Part shown: positions 1 to 16,299 of the stretch, in pieces
Layout: every line of letters begins with the position of its first letter
Numbering within the stretch: the first letter of the stretch is position 1
NCBI GenBank assembly: GCA_046290225.1
Contig: JBKAGE010000020.1
Span: 1 to 16,299, forward strand
Length of the DNA stretch: 16,299 nucleotides
Source: Bradymonadia bacterium
GTDB lineage: Bacteria; Myxococcota_A; Bradymonadia; UBA7976; UBA1532
Reading direction: 5' to 3'
Notes under the pieces: model-generated
Told to the model about the DNA's origin: nothing
The model's input: only the letters and a program-made list of their open reading frames with translations
Databases searched by the model: none
Translations under genes and position numbers: made by a program

Positions 1-8
1 GAGGATTC

Positions 9-93
9 GAAAAAATCCTCATGTTCGAGCTGGGCTGGCTCGCCGCTAACCAATCCACCACTACACCAAAAGATGTGTAGGACGATCAGAGCC
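9..93. repeat. 85-bp repeat, exact reverse complement of 16215..16299; possible IS end
   Basis: gaaaaaatcctc...gacgatcagagcc matches the reverse complement of the window's last 85 nt exactly. The inner boundary reads GGCTCT on the minus strand, resembling ISL3-type termini. Internal hairpin ctacac-N8-gtgtag at 61-80. Confidence 0.9.
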
Positions 94-226
94 GCTGGCT
101 ACGCCTGCGCTTTTGACACCACGACTGCGCACCAACTCACCACTCAGTCACCCACCGCCGACCCCTGCGGAGCTCCCGGTGCTCGGCCAAACCACTTCGT
201 TTTGCGGCTTGGCAATTACGTGACTC

Positions 227-300
227 TTGGCGAGGCGGGGGTCGAACCCGCGACCTTCGGTCTGTCAAACCGCTGCTGCAACCAGCTGAGCTTCTCGCCA
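227..300 (-). tRNA. tRNA-Val(GAC), atypical (A8, G27.A43 mismatch), CCA not encoded
   Basis: Cloverleaf: acceptor TGGCGAG/CTCGCCA, anticodon loop TT-GAC-AG, T arm GCGGG-TTCGACC-CCCGC, discriminator A. Confidence 0.85.
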
Positions 301-302
301 TC

Positions 303-323
303 AATCAGCAATCAGCAATCAGC
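303..323. repeat. 3 x 7-bp tandem repeat (aatcagc) in tRNA spacer
   Basis: aatcagc-aatcagc-aatcagc; the equivalent spacer in the upstream unit has one variant copy (aatcggc, 874-880). Confidence 0.8.
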
Positions 324-396
324 ACGAATGGCAGGACTCGAACCTGCAACCTTCAGCTTAGGAAGCCGCCGCTCTCTCCAATTGAGCTACACTCGT
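323..396 (-). tRNA. tRNA-Arg(CCT), CCA not encoded
   Basis: Acceptor ACGAGTG/CATTCGT, D arm GCTC-AATTGGAGA-GAGC (A20), loop TT-CCT-AA, T loop TTCGAGT, G73. Confidence 0.92.
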
Positions 397-400
397 ATCG

Positions 401-475
401 TGGGACCGGTGGGACTCGAACCCACAACCGTCTGCTTAAAAGGCAGCTGCTCTGACCAAATTGAGCTACGATCCT
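401..475 (-). tRNA. tRNA-Lys(TTT), A1.C72 mismatch, CCA not encoded
   Basis: Acceptor AGGATCG/CGGTCCC, loop CT-TTT-AA, T arm GTGGG-TTCGAGT-CCCAC, A73. Confidence 0.9.
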
Positions 476-481
476 TCGAGG

Positions 482-555
482 CGAAATCGGTAGGACTCGA
501 ACCTACAGCCTCCTGCTCCGCAAGCAGGTGCTCTATCCACTTGAGCTACGACTTC
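482..555 (-). tRNA. tRNA-Arg(GCG), CCA not encoded
   Basis: Acceptor GAAGTCG/CGATTTC, D loop AAGTGGATA (A20), perfect anticodon stem CCTGC/GCAGG, loop TT-GCG-GA, G73. Confidence 0.92.
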
Positions 556-559
556 AAAA

Positions 560-632
560 TAGGACTGGCAGGACTTGAACCTGCATTGCCCGCGTATCAG
601 ACGGGATTCCTAACCACTTAGAAGACAGTCCT
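560..632 (-). tRNA. tRNA-Ile(GAT), atypical body, CCA not encoded
   Basis: Acceptor AGGACTG/CAGTCCT, D arm TTCT-AAGTGGTTA-GGAA, loop CT-GAT-AC, 4-nt variable loop, T loop TTCAAGT, A73. Confidence 0.82.
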
Positions 633-634
633 AT

Positions 635-795
635 AGAGCAGTATGAGGAGTGAACTGACACACCAGGCTCGCCCATCGACGAGATCCCAAGCTCAGAAAT
701 ACTCGATGATGCTTTGGCATCGTCTGCGATTTCTTCACGTGGCCTCTCGTCGATGTTCTTCGCCTTCTGTATCAGTTCACTCCTCATACTGCTCT
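635..795. mobile_element. 161-bp palindromic MITE-like element (or rod-shaped RNA) within the tRNA array
   Basis: Perfect 24-bp terminal inverted repeats (635-658 / 772-795) extending to 34 bp with 3 mismatches; inner 11-bp IR (674-684 / 745-755). No clean target-site duplication seen. Confidence 0.6.
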
Positions 796-871
796 GGTTG
801 GCGAGGCGGGGGTCGAACCCGCGACCTTCGGTTCGTGAAACCGCTGCTACGGCCTACTGAGCTTCTCGCCA
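795..871 (-). tRNA. tRNA-Val(CAC), atypical (A8, G27.A43), CCA encoded
   Basis: Near copy of 227..300 differing only in the D arm and anticodon loop (TT-CAC-GA); ends ACCA. Confidence 0.85.
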
Positions 872-879
872 TCAATCGG

Positions 880-953
880 CACGACTGGCAGGACTCGAAC
901 CTGCAACGTTCTGCTTAGAAGGCAGACGCTCTATCCACTTGAGCTACAGTCGC
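880..953 (-). tRNA. tRNA-Arg(TCT), CCA not encoded
   Basis: Acceptor GCGACTG/CAGTCGT, D loop AAGTGGATA, stem TCTGC/GCAGA, loop CT-TCT-AA, G73. Confidence 0.94.
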
Positions 954-956
954 GCA

Positions 957-1034
957 TGGTCGGATCGGTGGGACTCGAACCCACAACCGTCTGCTTAAGA
1001 GGCAGCTGCTCTGACCAAATTGAGCTACGATCCG
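957..1034 (-). tRNA. tRNA-Lys(CTT), CCA encoded
   Basis: Acceptor CGGATCG/CGATCCG, loop CT-CTT-AA, ends ACCA; near-identical to the Lys(TTT) gene. Confidence 0.94.
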
Positions 1035-1152
1035 ATGAGGGAGATCGAGATCTCCCAAAAGACTATCAATACACCCACAAAACGCACCTCTCTCCCTACC
1101 AGCCACAAACAGCCAGCCAACCAATACTCAAAAAACACAATTCAATAGTCAG

Positions 1153-1226
1153 AAGAGCGAGCAGGACTCGAACCTGCAGCCTCTTGCTTCGGAAACAAGC
1201 GCCCTATCCAATTGGGCCACCGCTCC
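1153..1226 (-). tRNA. tRNA-Arg(CCG), U73, CCA not encoded
   Basis: Acceptor GGAGCGG/TCGCTCT (two G.U), D arm GCCC-AATTGGATA-GGGC, loop TT-CCG-AA, T loop TTCGAGT. Confidence 0.88.
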
Positions 1227-1287
1227 TCAAAAAACCAATATCAAATCAAACACCTAACCTCCGCACCGTGCACCGCGGAGGCGCGCA

Positions 1288-1426
1288 GGCGACGCGCTTT
1301 GGTGGCTGAGCGTCGAGTTGGCGTGTATCTGTGGTGACTCAACCGGAAGCGTAGCAGCGCTACGCTGAGGATTGAGGCGCCGCAGAGACGCGTCAAATCG
1401 CCGCTCAGACGCCAAAGCGCGGCGCC
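1288..1426. repeat. 139-bp long imperfect hairpin
   Basis: Ungapped 55-bp arms 1288-1342 and 1372-1426 (44/55 Watson-Crick); inner hairpin agcgtagc-agc-gctacgct at 1348-1366. Confidence 0.85.
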
Positions 1427-1435
1427 GGAGCCCAT

Positions 1436-1470
1436 AAAAAAACCCGCCAATCCTTGAGGAGAGGCGGGTT
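1436..1470 (-). terminator. Intrinsic terminator (attenuator 3:4 helix) upstream of the tRNA array
   Basis: Minus strand AACCCGCC-TCTCCTCAAGGATT-GGCGGGTT, with a run of 7 T starting at the stem base; begins about 28 nt after the leader stop codon. Confidence 0.9.
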
Positions 1471-1498
1471 CTCTACTGAAACGCTTTTATGAGCAATT

Positions 1499-1606
1499 TC
1501 AGAAAGTTCCACCTCCTTCACGACGTACGCGAATCACCCGCAGACGGCGGACGGATTTCACCCGACGCTTGAGTCTGACGTTGACGATGGTGTTCTGGAC
1601 GTACAT
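1499..1606 (-). CDS. Putative attenuation leader peptide, 35 aa (MYVQNTIVNVRLKRRVKSVRRLRVIRVRREGGGTF)
   Basis: GGAG 9 nt before the ATG; 9 Arg, 7 Val, 2 Lys and 2 Ile codons; its 3' end is complementary to the terminator's 5' arm. Confidence 0.8.
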   Translation of the reverse strand: MYVQNTIVNVRLKRRVKSVRRLRVIRVRREGGGTF

Positions 1607-1661
1607 GAAGAAGGGCTCCGTAAAAACTGTGTCTGAATGTGTAATGCGTTCGACGTCACTG

Positions 1662-1853: not shown

Positions 1854-2867
1854 ATGATCGACCTGCGCAGCGATACCGTCACCCGACCCACCCCGCCCAT
1901 GCTCGAGGCCATGACGAGCGCCGAAGTCGGTGACGACGTGTTGGGTGAGGATCCCACCGTCACGGCCCTCGAAACCAACATCGCTCAGCGGTTCGGGCAC
2001 GAGGCAGGCCTGTTCTGCCCATCCGGTACCATGACCAACCAGATCGCGCTGCAAGTGCACATGCGGCCCGGAGACGAGGTCATCTGCAGCGCCCTCGCTC
2101 ACATCTACTTGTACGAAGGTGGAGGCATTGCGGCCAACGCTGGCGCATCTGCCCGGCTCATGCAGGGTGAGCGGGGCATGTTCAGCGTCGATGACGCGCG
2201 GGCTGCAATTCGGGCAGATGATCCCCACTACCCCCGGACCCGGCTCATCGCCTTGGAAGACACCTGCAACCGTGGGGGCGGCATCACGTGGCCTGTGGAC
2301 GACATCAGCGCCATGCGGCAACTCGCCGACGATCATGCCCTCGCGCTTCATCTCGATGGCGCTCGGGTGTTCAACCGCCTCGTGGCCCGTGGAGAAGATG
2401 CACGGATCTACGGGCAGCTGTACCACTCCATCTCGATTTGCTTGTCCAAGGGCCTCGGCGCCCCGGTGGGCTCTGTCCTCGTGGGCAATGCCGACTTCAT
2501 CGCTCAGGCACGGCGAGTGCGCAAACGCCTCGGTGGAGGTATGCGACAGGCAGGCTACCTTGCTGCAGCAGGGCAATATGCCCTCGATCATCACGTGGAC
2601 CGCCTCGTGGAGGATCATCGACGGGCCGCACGGATCGCTGAGGCACTCGATGGGGTGTCAGGGGTCGCGCATGTCTGGTCCCCGGAGACCAACATCGTCA
2701 TCGGGACTCTGGCAGAGGGGGTCGAGCCGGGACAGTGGCTCGATCAGTTGAAGCAGGCGGGGGTGCTCGCCGGACGCTCCGGGCCTGGGCAGATCAGGAT
2801 GGTGACCCACCTGGACGTCGACGATGACGACGTAGCGCAGGTATGTCGAGCGCTCCAGCACATGTGA
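1854..2867 (+). CDS. ltaE: Low-specificity L-threonine aldolase (PLP-dependent)
   Basis: [11 protein letters not shown]-terminus, [14 protein letters not shown] and [10 protein letters not shown] motifs; GGAG at 1842-1845 supports the ATG at 1854 rather than the 1569 start. Confidence 0.92.
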
Positions 2868-4733: not shown

Positions 4734-6518
4734 TCAGCGCAGTGCTCGACCTCGAGCATGTTCGAGGCGCTCATGAAGCGTCTGCATAGAAATATCTCGA
4801 TACGCCCCCGGCAACCAGCGCCGGCTGCTGGCTTCTTGCACCGCCAGGAGCTCCATGTACTCCATCATGGCGGTCTCGCGGGTGGGCAAGTAATCCCGGG
4901 CAGCCTGGGCCAGATAGGGGCCGGTGAGGGTGTCAGCAGCCTCTTCAGTTGCCTGCTCATCCGTCTGATCGGCGTTGGGGTTCAGCCCAGCGTGTAGATC
5001 GTCCCAGGCCATGAGCAACAATGCCTCGAGATCTGCTGCGCCGTAATCGTGCAAATCTTCGAGGATCGGCAGCAGCACCTCGTCGGGGAGATCGACCTTG
5101 AGTTTGTGGCGCCTGATCTGTGCCCGAACAATGGCCGCTCTCTCGGTGGAGCTTTGCGGCCGGAAGAACGGGATCTTGGTGTCGAAACGTCCTGGCCGCT
5201 TCATGTCGGTGTCGAGCTTGTCGGGGCGGTTGGTCATCATCATGAAGATGATGCGGCCCCGGTGATCGGGATCGCTCATGAACTCCTTGAGCCGGGCCAT
5301 CACCCGAGAGTTCACCCCAGAGTCGCCCTCGTCGCCGCCCATGGCTCGATCGCCCTCGTCGATGATGACCAGGATCTCACCAAGGCTCTCGATAACGCCG
5401 AGCACCTTCTCAAGGTTGGCCTCGGTGCTGCCCACCCACTTGTCCCGGAAGTTCTTGAGCTTGATGGCGGCGAGGCCACTCTCCCGTGCAAAGGCTTCAG
5501 CGATGAAGCTCTTGCCGGTACCCATGGGGCCCACGAGCATGACGCCCATGGGCACCTGGGCCCTCCGGCCGGCCTTCACGTGATCGACGATGCGCATGAG
5601 CCCTTGCTTGATGGGCTCGAGGCCGCCAACAACGGTGAAGTCGTGGTCGGGGTTGATGACCTCGATGAGGCCGTGACACTCCTGCTCGAGGATCTCTTTC
5701 TTGCGGGCGGCCACCTGCTCCACGGGCAAGCTGTCGTCGGGGCCCTCGGTGAGGGTGCCCGACTTCATGAGATCGTCCACCTGTCGCAGCTGCAACCCTG
5801 CCGTGAGGCGTACGAGGCCCGAGCCACGCTCTTCGCTGAGACCAGAATGAGCGTGGCTGAGGAACCGCGCCCGCTCCAGACCCGCCGGCAAGGGCACCTT
5901 GATGGCCACGATTCTGGGGTTCCGGGTGAGGCGCTGGCTCAATGACGACAAGGTGCTGCACAGCATGATCACCATGTTGTCGTTGTGTACCACCTCGTCC
6001 CAGAGAGACCACCGATGCAAGGTGGCGGCGGCGGTGCGATCCATCACGCTGAGGCTGGCGGCGTCACCGGCGGGGGTGATGAGGGAGCCATAGTGCATGA
6101 TGATGGCGCAGGGCATCTCGGCCCGCGTGAGCAAGACCTCGAGGGCAGGCAGCACCACGGCAGCGTCCCGCTCCATGCCCAGAGCGTCGTCGAGGGCCCG
6201 CACGAGTGCGGCGTCAGAGGTCGCCGCAGCCCGGATCATGTTGGCCTCGACGAGGGCCCGAGCAGCGAGCACGGCGTGGGACCGCTTGGGAAAGTACACG
6301 CCCTTGCCGGGGTCGAAGTGCACCACCAGCTTGCCGCTGGGCTCGAAGAAGGCATCGAGGAAGTCGGGCATGCTCCACACCCGACCCCCAGCGAAGATCA
6401 CGTCGTGCACATTGCCATGCAAGATGAACTGCCCAGTGTCAGTGTGCAGATATCGATCCCGAAGGGTCTGCATCCACTGGGGGAGATCAGGGGCGCGGGG
6501 CAGATCGAGGGCGGCCAT
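4734..6518 (-). CDS. Classic-clade AAA+ ATPase with one intact module and a long N-terminal region
   Basis: Walker A GPMGTGKS, pore loop KWVG, Walker [36 protein letters not shown] supports the start at 6518. Confidence 0.9.
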
Positions 6519-6631
6519 GGGGACCTCGCTGTACGGCAGAGATGGGAAGAGAAATGTGAGGTGGGCGTGATGCACATGCATCACGTAGCGCAGTATGACT
6601 CAGCGCAGTATCACTGCAGTGACGACCAGAC

Positions 6632-7345
6632 TCAGAGGGTCTTGTTGCCCTCGGTCTCGCCGCCACCACCACCGCCTTCACGAGCAGCCTTGAGCGCAGC
6701 GAGGCGGGCCTTGGCCTTGGCGGTGCCGGTCTGGGCGCGGATCTTCTCGAGCTTGCCCTCGAGGGACTCTTCCTTGAGCTCGGTGTTGATCTGCACCTCG
6801 GCCTTCACCTTCTCGGCGTAGTCGCGCACGTTCTGCAGAGCCTTGACCTCTTCGTCGACAGAGATGCCGTCGAGCTGCTCCTGGATCTGCTTGCGGGCCT
6901 CGGCGTCCTTGATCTGGGCCACGACCTTGTCGCGCTCGCGCTTGAGCTTCTCGATCTCGGACTGCACGTTGCGCAGCGAGTCTTTGGCGGCCTCAGCGTC
7001 GCGGCTGGCCTGCTCGATGTCGCGACGGTAATCGGCGAGTTGCGCTTCGAGCTCTTCCTGGCGCTCGAGGAGCACCAGGGCGGACTCGTCATCACCGCTG
7101 TCGACGGCCACCTGCACCTGCAGCCTGATCTCTTCGAGGGCCGACTCGGCCTTCTGGATCTTGGCCTCGAGCTGGGCCCGATGCTTGATGAGCCCCGCCG
7201 CGGCGGTCTTGAGCTTCTGGTACTTCTCGGTCATGGCGTTGATCGCGTTCTCGAAGGCGATCTCCGGATGCTTTTCTTCCATCCGGCCCACGAACATGCT
7301 CAAGAAGCCCTTCCACAGGTTGTACATCCGGGACATGAAACCCAT
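6632..7345 (-). CDS. PspA/IM30 (ESCRT-III-like) family coiled-coil protein
   Basis: Amphipathic N-terminus MGFMSRMYNLWKG, E..HPE hinge, 'AVDSGDDESA' turn, long coiled coil, C-terminal 'ARLAALKA'; GGAGG RBS. Confidence 0.88.
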   Translation of the reverse strand: MGFMSRMYNLWKGFLSMFVGRMEEKHPEIAFENAINAMTEKYQKLKTAAAGLIKHRAQLEAKIQKAESALEEIRLQVQVAVDSGDDESALVLLERQEELEAQLADYRRDIEQASRDAEAAKDSLRNVQSEIEKLKRERDKVVAQIKDAEARKQIQEQLDGISVDEEVKALQNVRDYAEKVKAEVQINTELKEESLEGKLEKIRAQTGTAKAKARLAALKAAREGGGGGGETEGNKTL

Positions 7346-7347
7346 CT

Positions 7348-8331
7348 TCAGACCTCCAGCTTCTCAAGGTCATGCGCCGTGAGACCCATCTCGGCCCCCA
7401 GCTGCTTGACCAAATCGATGTTTCGCAAATTGTCGGCAAGCGTCTGAAGCAAGAACAGACGCGCCTTGGTGTGCATGGCTTCGAGGCGACCGTCATCGAC
7501 ACCGAAAGCTTCGGCGAACTCGGTGATGCGGACGCGCTCTTCGACGGAAAACTCTCCGTCGGCGTAGATGAGGAGAAAACACGAGATGAAGAACGCTTCT
7601 TCCACCTGAGCACCTTTCAGTGCGCTGGCGGCCTCGGCGAGGTCAAAGCCCTTCTGTCGCAGGGCCTCGAGCTGCTCTGAGGTGTCGGCGTCTTCGAGCC
7701 CGCAGAAATCGGCGATGAGAGCCACCTCCGCGGGGTGCTCGCCGTCAGCGCCGGCGAGGGTGAGCAGACCACGACCGATGAGGCGGGTCTGGGCGTCGGT
7801 GAGCTGCAGGCTCTCGTAGAACTCTTCGGCAGTCTCGAGCACGGCGGCGTCGGCGAGGGCCTCGACGTCGATGGTGCCGAGGCCCATCTCACCGGCGATC
7901 TCCAAAACGGCATCGCGGTTGCGCACGCCCTCGGCGATCTCCTTGAGCAGGAACAGCCGGGCGCGACGATGCAGACCGTCGAGGGTGGGCTGGTCGAGAT
8001 CGAAGAGCTGCGCGAAGGCGGCCACCTTGGCCCGCTCTTCGTCGGAGTGGTTGCCGTCTGCGTACACCAGCATGTAGCAGGTGATGAAGAAGGCCTCGAC
8101 GAGATGCTCACCGCCGGCTTTCACGGCCTCGGCGGCGGCGCCGTCGAAGCCTTCAGCCCGCATGGCCGCCAGTACATCTTCAGGGCTGCTGCTGCTCCCA
8201 CTGTAGAAGTCGGCGACAAGAGCCAGCTCTGACTCGTGCACCCCATCGACAGCGGCGAGATCGAGCAAACCCCGGCAGATCCACTCGGTCTGGGCATCAG
8301 TGAGCTGGATGCCCTCGTAGAGTTCCTGCAT
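7348..8331 (-). CDS. Tandem TerB-like domain protein
   Basis: Two ~160-aa internal repeats (QLTDAQT..I.RGLL.LA..DG.H..E; YADG..S.EER); stop lies 2 nt before the PspA start. Confidence 0.8.
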   Translation of the reverse strand: MQELYEGIQLTDAQTEWICRGLLDLAAVDGVHESELALVADFYSGSSSSPEDVLAAMRAEGFDGAAAEAVKAGGEHLVEAFFITCYMLVYADGNHSDEERAKVAAFAQLFDLDQPTLDGLHRRARLFLLKEIAEGVRNRDAVLEIAGEMGLGTIDVEALADAAVLETAEEFYESLQLTDAQTRLIGRGLLTLAGADGEHPAEVALIADFCGLEDADTSEQLEALRQKGFDLAEAASALKGAQVEEAFFISCFLLIYADGEFSVEERVRITEFAEAFGVDDGRLEAMHTKARLFLLQTLADNLRNIDLVKQLGAEMGLTAHDLEKLEV

Positions 8332-16165: not shown

Positions 16166-16214
16166 TCACGAGTTTGCGTGCGGGCGTCGTGAAAATTCGG
16201 GAGTCGTAGCCGGA

Positions 16215-16299
16215 GGCTCTGATCGTCCTACACATCTTTTGGTGTAGTGGTGGATTGGTTAGCGGCGAGCCAGCCCAGCTCGAACATGAGGATTTTTTC
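16215..16299. repeat. 85-bp repeat, exact reverse complement of 9..93; possible IS end
   Basis: Begins GGCTCTGATCGTCCTACAC and runs to the window edge. Confidence 0.9.

Follow-up and report, generated by a model that had tools for sequence, protein, structure and literature searches.

Gene copy number together with global control is the usual explanation of how tRNA levels are matched to codon demand. Classical attenuators of the trp, thr and ilv type combine a leader open reading frame (ORF) with its ribosome-binding site, codon enrichment, a terminator, mutually exclusive 2:3 and 3:4 helices and an anti-antiterminator, and all of these features are present in predicted form at the locus described here. 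The target genes of the classical family are those of biosynthesis or of aminoacyl-tRNA synthetases, whereas nine tRNA genes take their place at this locus. Therefore, the attenuator would work like the classical family and is yet not filed as a member of it.

Several described systems stand close to this arrangement. In Streptomyces, attenuators have been predicted for trpS and leuS, and the ilvB leader of Streptomyces coelicolor has a similar anatomy with control that is independent of its candidate codons (PMC1262725). T-box riboswitches bind tRNA directly, without a translated leader (PMC7778990). Anabaena carries one array of 26 tRNA genes (PMC8421152, PMC10272220), and this trn operon is repressed by the protein TrcR (PMC10272220). 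The main texts of the two Anabaena reports make no mention of attenuation or of a leader, and that of one of them makes no mention of a terminator (PMC8421152). No published attenuator controlling tRNA genes was found in the literature searched, which left out most subscription papers. Considering the folding models and the composition of the leader together, we think it probable that the present unit is a ribosome-mediated transcription attenuator that senses slow decoding of the codons of its own array and gates the nine tRNA genes.

Layout of the locus and composition of the leader

The window, that is, the whole stretch of DNA analysed (16,299 nt), is the entire contig C20 of an assembly of 8.58 Mb with 64% GC. 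Reading from right to left on the minus strand, a promoter-like site, a Shine-Dalgarno (SD)-like sequence, the leader ORF, a terminator, a palindromic repeat and nine tRNA genes (1226-227) follow one another (Table 1), and the remainder of the contig carries ordinary protein genes. The tRNA genes, identified with ARAGORN and Rfam, all score 50-68 bits in Rfam and specify Arg, Lys, Val and Ile only. A -35 element of the TTG(A/C)(C/A) type with TA 17 nt later was found 38-107 nt upstream of eight of the nine leaders examined, and GGAGCC also precedes the Ala/Gly/Thr leader and the Trp leader described below.

Table 1. Features of the C20 unit and its surroundings, with positions in the window.
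Feature	Position	Strand	Basis and remarks
Threonine-aldolase-like PLP enzyme, divergent neighbour	1899..2867	+	NCBIfam NF041359, NF007825; outside attenuator control
Promoter-like TTGACC-N17-TACAAA	1690-1662	-	Inferred; absent from strict scanner output
Shine-Dalgarno-like GGAG	1618-1615	-	8 nt upstream of leader AUG
Segment 1a, CCUUCUUCAUG	1604..1614	-	Predicted dominant anti-antiterminator in untranslated RNA; pairs with 1522-1512; buries start codon
Leader ORF, 35 aa, MYVQNTIVNVRLKRRVKSVRRLRVIRVRREGGGTF	1606-1499	-	Predicted from sequence
Segment 1b (segment 1 of the original prediction)	1542..1551	-	Predicted folding; conditional partner of segment 2
Segment 2, antiterminator 5' strand	1516-1509	-	Predicted folding; codons Gly31-33
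Antiterminator inner helices, CUUU/AGAG and stop-codon hairpin CUGAAAU/GUUUCAG	1471..1506	-	Predicted minimum free energy (MFE) structure
Segments 3:4, intrinsic terminator hairpin and U7	1436..1470	-	Predicted, -22.3 kcal/mol
Long dispersed palindromic repeat, separating attenuator from first tRNA	1271..1430	.	Outside switch; 26 BLAST matches genome-wide including itself
tRNA-Arg(CCG), first gene of array	1152..1226	-	ARAGORN; Rfam 62.4 bits
tRNA-Lys(CTT)	957..1034	-	ARAGORN, Rfam
tRNA-Arg(TCT)	878..953	-	ARAGORN, Rfam
tRNA-Val(CAC)	795..871	-	ARAGORN, Rfam
Second palindromic dispersed repeat, within array	634..794	.	29 BLAST matches genome-wide including itself, at most 91% identity
tRNA-Ile(GAT)	559..633	-	ARAGORN, Rfam; sole assembled copy
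tRNA-Arg(GCG), anticodon rare in class	480..555	-	ARAGORN, Rfam
tRNA-Lys(TTT)	400..475	-	ARAGORN, Rfam
tRNA-Arg(CCT)	322..396	-	ARAGORN, Rfam
tRNA-Val(GAC), last assembled array gene of contig	227..300	-	ARAGORN, Rfam
Contig-end repeat	1..226	.	Probable assembly break; common to many contig ends

Over 110 nt, the repeat at 1-226 is 81% complementary to the beginning of contig C24 of the same genome, and the tRNAs of C24 are 80% identical to those of the C20 array. On this sequence evidence the array may extend onto C24 with tRNA-Arg(ACG) and tRNA-Arg(TCG), giving nine genes or perhaps 11. From the attenuator to the contig end there are three T-runs of at least five, and no stable hairpin precedes any of them (best -8.0 kcal/mol). 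Since the 16S gene was not found in the assembly, copies of tRNA-Ile(GAT) in rRNA operons may be missing from it. The region 1230-1440 folds with z = -5.61; the hairpin at 1271-1430 was ruled out as a non-coding RNA, as it is a dispersed repeat and the Rfam matches there lie far under threshold. Dispersed palindromic repeats occur at 1-226, 634-794, 1271-1430 and 16202-16299, and the repeat at both ends of the contig shares 95-98% identity with the ends of many other contigs.

Further observations concern individual genes of the window. Both tRNA-Val genes appear by eye to have A at position 8, where U is usual, and a D-stem of 3 bp. The pattern of tRNA-Arg(GCG) matched in 5 of the 113 genomes of the class; in the studied genome this tRNA is present alongside Arg(ACG) and Arg(TCG), and it would decode CGC and CGT without inosine formation, the usual set for Arg CGN codons being ICG plus CCG (PMC3711424). 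A run of genes at 4734-8331 on the minus strand encodes a duplicated TerB-like protein and a PspA-like coiled coil (both recognised by eye) together with a CDC48-type AAA ATPase, and is possibly an envelope-stress operon.

The leader contains 9 Arg, 7 Val, 2 Lys and 2 Ile among its 34 codons, so that 20 of the 34, spread over 11 different codons, correspond to the four amino acids of the array, against a background share of 0.208 in 2,966 ORFs (p = 1.5e-6). Among 41,395 short ATG ORFs taken from all frames, only three reached this combined share, and one had both the Arg share and the Val/Lys/Ile share of the leader. The rare codons AGA, ATT, GTA and AAA are included. By standard wobble rules the anticodons of the array decode 19 of the 20 matched codons, the exception being GTA, and the anticodon CCT is present in the array with no AGG codon in the leader. 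No NCBIfam family matched the 35-aa peptide. Such a composition could in principle be an accident of GC-rich DNA, in which an Arg-rich frame and a G-rich patch happen to lie beside an ordinary terminator, and Arg-rich short ORFs are indeed frequent, with at least 26% Arg in 1,362 of the 41,395. Val, Lys and Ile, however, are enriched by themselves to a level attained by only 105 of the 41,395 (p = 0.006).

Predicted helices and their response to the ribosome

The stretch 1640-1425 folds with z = -4.68, and none of 200 shuffles was as good. The three strings on which the original prediction was built, GGAGGUGG (1516-1509), CCGCCUCU (1467-1460) and UCCGCCGUCU (1551-1542), are all located where it had placed them, and the terminator arms are CCCGCC (1468-1463) and GGCGGG (1448-1443), followed by U7 at 1442-1436. 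The proposed 3:4 hairpin with its U-tract was returned as the predicted fold, and with a ribosome at the stop codon it alone formed. The built-in terminator scan gave 0 sites between 1000 and 2500, probably due to the internal loop of the stem. The proposed 2:3 helix (1516-1509:1467-1460) was likewise the MFE structure when the 5' part of the leader was masked and the RNA ended at 1452, and the same pairing was the MFE under masks to 1540, 1530 and 1520. Some details needed correction: the Gly codons said to lie just before the stop are codons 31-33, two codons before it, and the extension of the helix across the stop codon consists of CUUU/AGAG (1506-1503:1474-1471), as proposed, and of a stop-codon hairpin CUGAAAU/GUUUCAG (1502-1496:1482-1476) that is longer than the CUGA/UCAG claimed.

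The 1:2 pairing required the largest revision. The duplex between 1551-1542 (segment 1b) and segment 2 is weak (-9.4 kcal/mol), and in pairing probabilities computed under 72 conditions it is conditional only: P was 0.0 in ribosome-free RNA at all eight lengths, rose as high as 0.99 only with ribosome masking to 1570-1552 (A-site codons about 9-15), and fell to at most 0.02, displaced by 2:3, once the RNA ended at 1460-1443. In ribosome-free RNA segment 2 is held instead by segment 1a, which sits between the SD and the AUG, beyond the coordinates first proposed; this pairing is the MFE helix, with a duplex energy of -21.1 kcal/mol and P of 0.92-1.0 at all eight lengths. The folding models thus suggest two segments 1, both of them consistent with antitermination on a stall at codons 16-27.

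The ribosome was then represented as a 13-nt edge moved along the leader ORF, with equilibrium rather than kinetic folding of the remaining RNA. When the RNA ended at 1446 or three bases short of the hairpin end, the outcome of these masking calculations changed abruptly from Val27 to Arg28. For RNA in which the hairpin had only just been completed, 2:3 won for codons 3-16 and the outcome for codons 17-27 was mixed (2-8 on a 0-9 scale), and with the RNA complete through U7 the terminator won at equilibrium (P 0.5-1.0; -32.3 vs -25.9 kcal/mol). The logic originally put forward, in which a stall gives 2:3 and read-through whereas 3:4 forms and transcription terminates once the ribosome is at the Gly codons or the stop, was therefore reproduced by the masking calculations. 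A 2:3 helix unable to compete with the terminator when segment 1 is masked had been named as grounds for rejecting that logic, and such behaviour was seen in part, as the terminator won on RNA through U7 and 2:3 on shorter RNA. We do not consider this a refutation, because the thrL, ilvL and trpL leaders of E. coli (taken from NC_000913.3 as controls) behave in the same manner, with the full hairpin terminating at equilibrium and a switch on shorter RNA only.

Taken by itself, the test on RNA three nucleotides short has little force, as 10 of the 21 ordinary terminators of the genome also fail to form under it. A second and more informative measure, the energy with which the terminator 5' arm binds upstream RNA, amounted to -10.9 kcal/mol and exceeded that of all 21 ordinary terminators; binding was stronger than in ordinary terminators for all nine leaders tested, and of the E. 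coli controls ilvL passed whereas thrL and trpL failed. Only 2 of 300 shuffles of codon order matched -10.9 kcal/mol. Synonymous shuffles were as strong in 2:3 in 185 of 300 cases (not significant), an equality that also speaks for an accidental origin of the pairing. As synonymous changes do not weaken 2:3, the pairing arises from the placement of the Gly codons and not from codon choice, and selection, if any, acts on placing three Gly codons at segment 2. A single 151-nt contig of depth 2, which spans 1360-1502 with a change in the terminator loop, is too thin to count.

With regard to the codons sensed, the original assignment to Arg and Val needs widening, as Lys and Ile are also among the array-matched codons of the leader, and 10 of the 12 codons from 16 to 27 specify one of these four amino acids. 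In the masking profile itself, a stalled ribosome can bring about antitermination at nearly every codon as far as 27, which would suit a general sensor of translation stress, where any slowing of the ribosome, by an antibiotic or by uncoupling, opens the array and the matched codons have no causal part. Consistent with such a sensor, translation antibiotics induce the Anabaena trn array (PMC8421152) and the leader codons of Streptomyces ilvB are dispensable (PMC1262725). A general sensor, however, would need neither an Arg-rich leader in front of an array that includes Arg tRNAs nor six different leaders that each match their own array, as described in the next section, and we regard it as unlikely.

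Sister units in the same genome and in relatives

The upstream DNA of 47 tRNA loci of the genome was scored, C24 being skipped for too little upstream DNA. An ORF followed by a hairpin with a T-tail was present at 11 of the 47, and six of the 47 showed a composition match at p < 0.05; the five other loci with an ORF and a hairpin had composition p of 0.38 or more. Besides the C20 unit, composition-matched leaders precede 10 genes on C37 (Leu, Ser and Tyr, with one Thr), seven genes for Asp, Glu, Gln and Phe on the minus strand of C42, seven genes for Ala, Gly and Thr on C79, and a Cys/Met/Pro unit on the plus strand of C42, which has a poor U-tail. On C77, a leader with tandem Trp codons precedes one tRNA-Trp; this extra tRNA is divergent (20.8 bits), and the masking calculation places the switch of the leader immediately past its Trp codons. 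When five leaders were set against five arrays, the true assignment ranked first of 120 with an amino-acid background that included antisense frames. A matched unit was found in 5 of the 12 multi-tRNA clusters, and in the other seven, among them Pro-Arg-His-Arg-Lys-Leu, four Ser with Arg, and Thr-Tyr-Gly-Thr, an ORF plus terminator was not found.

Six matched units in one genome largely refute an origin by chance through their recurrence. Furthermore, seven terminators that matched the pattern elsewhere lie behind longer ORFs or repeats, with no tRNAs alongside. An accidental juxtaposition at C20 is therefore hardly credible.

Some other tRNA loci of this genome deserve mention. Within the Cys/Met/Pro unit, a 305-aa ORF lies between tRNA-Cys and tRNA-Met (C42, 38650-39565, plus strand), which we take from an N-terminal motif to resemble a nucleoside hydrolase, and the leader of the unit has five His codons, with no His tRNA found in that unit. 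On the plus strand of C34 (374632-375658), three tRNA-like genes with anticodon-arm insertions of about 40 nt and a common motif ending GTCTTACTTCGC precede two tRNA-Pro. These genes lie behind a TGGCAC-N5-TGC site, which presumably resembles a sigma-54 promoter, and a similar arrangement was seen in L047 of the relative G077; the Asn/His tRNA pair on C44 has such a site too, without a leader and terminator. On the minus strand of C14 (27995-28067), ARAGORN reports a tRNA, given the label Pyl, whose anticodon is CTA (Rfam 65 bits); this tRNA could be an amber suppressor.

Four other genomes carry the tRNA-Arg(GCG) pattern: two have leader-bearing arrays, one a lone tRNA and one no tRNA. Three units were identified in the relative G023, namely Leu x4, Pro x3 and Asp/Arg/Arg/Phe/Gln/Glu, each with a leader and a terminator, although the Leu and Pro leaders are weakly enriched (p 0.058 and 0.036). 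The relative G077 has a 16-gene array whose leader is matched at 39 of 42 codons and also an Asp/Glu array interrupted by a contig end. The G023 leader of the Asp/Arg/Arg/Phe/Gln/Glu unit is 66% identical to the C42 leader of the Asp/Glu/Gln/Phe unit and has seven Arg codons against one; all seven are CGC, CGT or CGG, and Arg(GCG) and Arg(CCG) are present in the G023 array only. This shift, although a single event (Fisher p = 0.053), is in the predicted direction. At housekeeping-tRNA loci of relatives, 2 of 19 passed the composition test at p < 0.01, both with poor tails.

Four homologous 3' ends, C20 included, share 6 compensatory pairs (two in the stop hairpin and four in the terminator), with 96% of cells paired against at most 54% in slid alignments; none of 500 shuffles did as well, a figure that is not a probability, as the structure was derived from these four related sequences, three of them paralogues. 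By eye, the 2:3 helix is kept among the homologues with one two-sided exchange (A-U to G-C), three one-sided changes and one bulge.

Searches beyond these loci returned no further member of the C20 type. A DNA search of 61 relatives for an orthologue of the Arg/Lys/Val/Ile unit gave tRNA matches only, and a search of 30 genomes of the order with the leader region gave no orthologue, the best match (E 0.0013 over 26 nt) being at a locus without tRNA. The leader-end pattern had 0 matches in viral contigs. The Lys-Arg-Val tRNA pattern matched 36 metagenome and 7 viral loci, none of them an orthologue of the unit. The terminator pattern matched seven genome contigs, one of which is the known Asp/Glu/Gln/Phe/Arg unit and six of which lack tRNA. 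It also matched one viral locus, which has no tRNA either, and none of the 400 genomes sampled from the phylum. A covariance model run on 112 genomes of the class, with 37 candidates scored per genome, exceeded 80 bits only at the four training loci, and tRNA was absent from 24 of the 26 loci with weaker scores. Among metagenome loci, the contig L082 (38% GC) has a 17-aa ORF that is 75% matched to a downstream Tyr/Gln/Ile/Met/Lys/Asn/Arg/Glu array, with a strong terminator, and at L064/L086 an ORF rich in Lys, Arg and Asn lies ahead of Asn, Lys and Arg tRNAs, with no terminator listed.

The studied genome has 90 tRNA matches (E up to 0.001), compared with 57 in G023, 66 in G077 and 44-47 in four other genomes of the family; these counts fit a spare set that is patchy among relatives. 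The same patchiness would be expected of a horizontally acquired and now silent tRNA set with a defunct leader, in which the terminator always forms. The repeats that interrupt the array, the sequestered SD-AUG region in naked RNA and the low scores of some array tRNAs in the sister units would agree with such a relic. The high scores of all nine C20 tRNAs, the retention of compensatory changes and the intact ORF, SD, promoter-like site and helices in six units argue against decay, and we find a relic quite unlikely.

Model of control and comparison with known systems

As a predicted switch and a codon-matched ORF lie directly before the matching tRNAs, we propose that these tRNAs are likely made only when ribosomes decode those codons slowly. 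In this attenuation model, transcription would begin near 1655, with a ribosome trailing the RNA polymerase. When charged tRNAs are plentiful, the ribosome would reach Arg28 and beyond and cover segment 2, and 3:4 would terminate transcription at U7. A ribosome lagging at any codon as far as Val27 would, with most certainty for codons 16-27, allow segment 2 to capture the terminator 5' arm and the polymerase to enter the array. If the leader were not translated, 1614-1604 would hold segment 2 and the terminator would form. Since the products of the array are the tRNAs whose shortage would be sensed, a negative feedback loop on tRNA supply would result. Sequence alone cannot separate a shortage of tRNA from a shortage of amino acid as the input; we favour the former, because extra tRNA cannot cure amino-acid starvation.

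There is, in our view, about an even chance that the arrangement is genome-wide and acts as a thermostat for tRNA, in which at least six chromosomal operons, with leaders of their own codons, divide a second tRNA set among them according to amino acid, a specific tRNA loss or overload induces the matching spares only, and transfers of genes from unit to unit are accompanied by co-evolution of leader and array. Cleavage of tRNA by an anticodon nuclease or a burst of growth could be examples of such triggers. If the codon-matched attenuator on tRNA genes is real, it would provide direct, amino-acid-specific feedback on tRNA supply and a second answer, besides the TrcR repressor, to how spare tRNA arrays are silenced and induced. 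Since one chromosome carries six units that would differ in their input, simple reporter swaps could test the idea, and the units would also be ready-made sensors of decoding rate.

Among known systems, the C20 unit resembles most the ilvL and thrL leaders of E. coli (ilvGMEDA and thr) in having a short leader (35 aa vs 32 aa in ilvL) with codons for several amino acids, a segment 2 in the last Gly codons, a stop-codon hairpin nested in the antiterminator, a GC hairpin with a U-tract and an equal masking profile, and trpL is the closest known counterpart of the Trp unit on C77. In contrast to ilvL and thrL, the downstream genes encode tRNAs instead of enzymes of biosynthesis, 11 codons, some of them rare, are represented in the leader, and the six units share out most of the amino acids. 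No Rfam leader family matched at the attenuator. As in the attenuators of aminoacyl-tRNA synthetases such as pheST, the component of the translation apparatus under control can relieve the stall, whereas here it is the tRNA that is produced, with a single leader for four amino acids. The unit shares with T-box riboswitches the principle that tRNA status selects between terminator and antiterminator (PMC7778990), and no T-box was matched by Rfam at the locus at gathering threshold or with E up to 5. As with inducible L-arrays, for example the Anabaena trn operon, a second, patchily distributed tRNA set stands beside the housekeeping set and is presumably silent until needed; unlike the Anabaena array, the set of the present genome is distributed by amino acid over small operons that each follow a predicted RNA switch. 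The anatomy is thus that of ilvL and thrL, from which the tRNA-gene target sets the unit apart.
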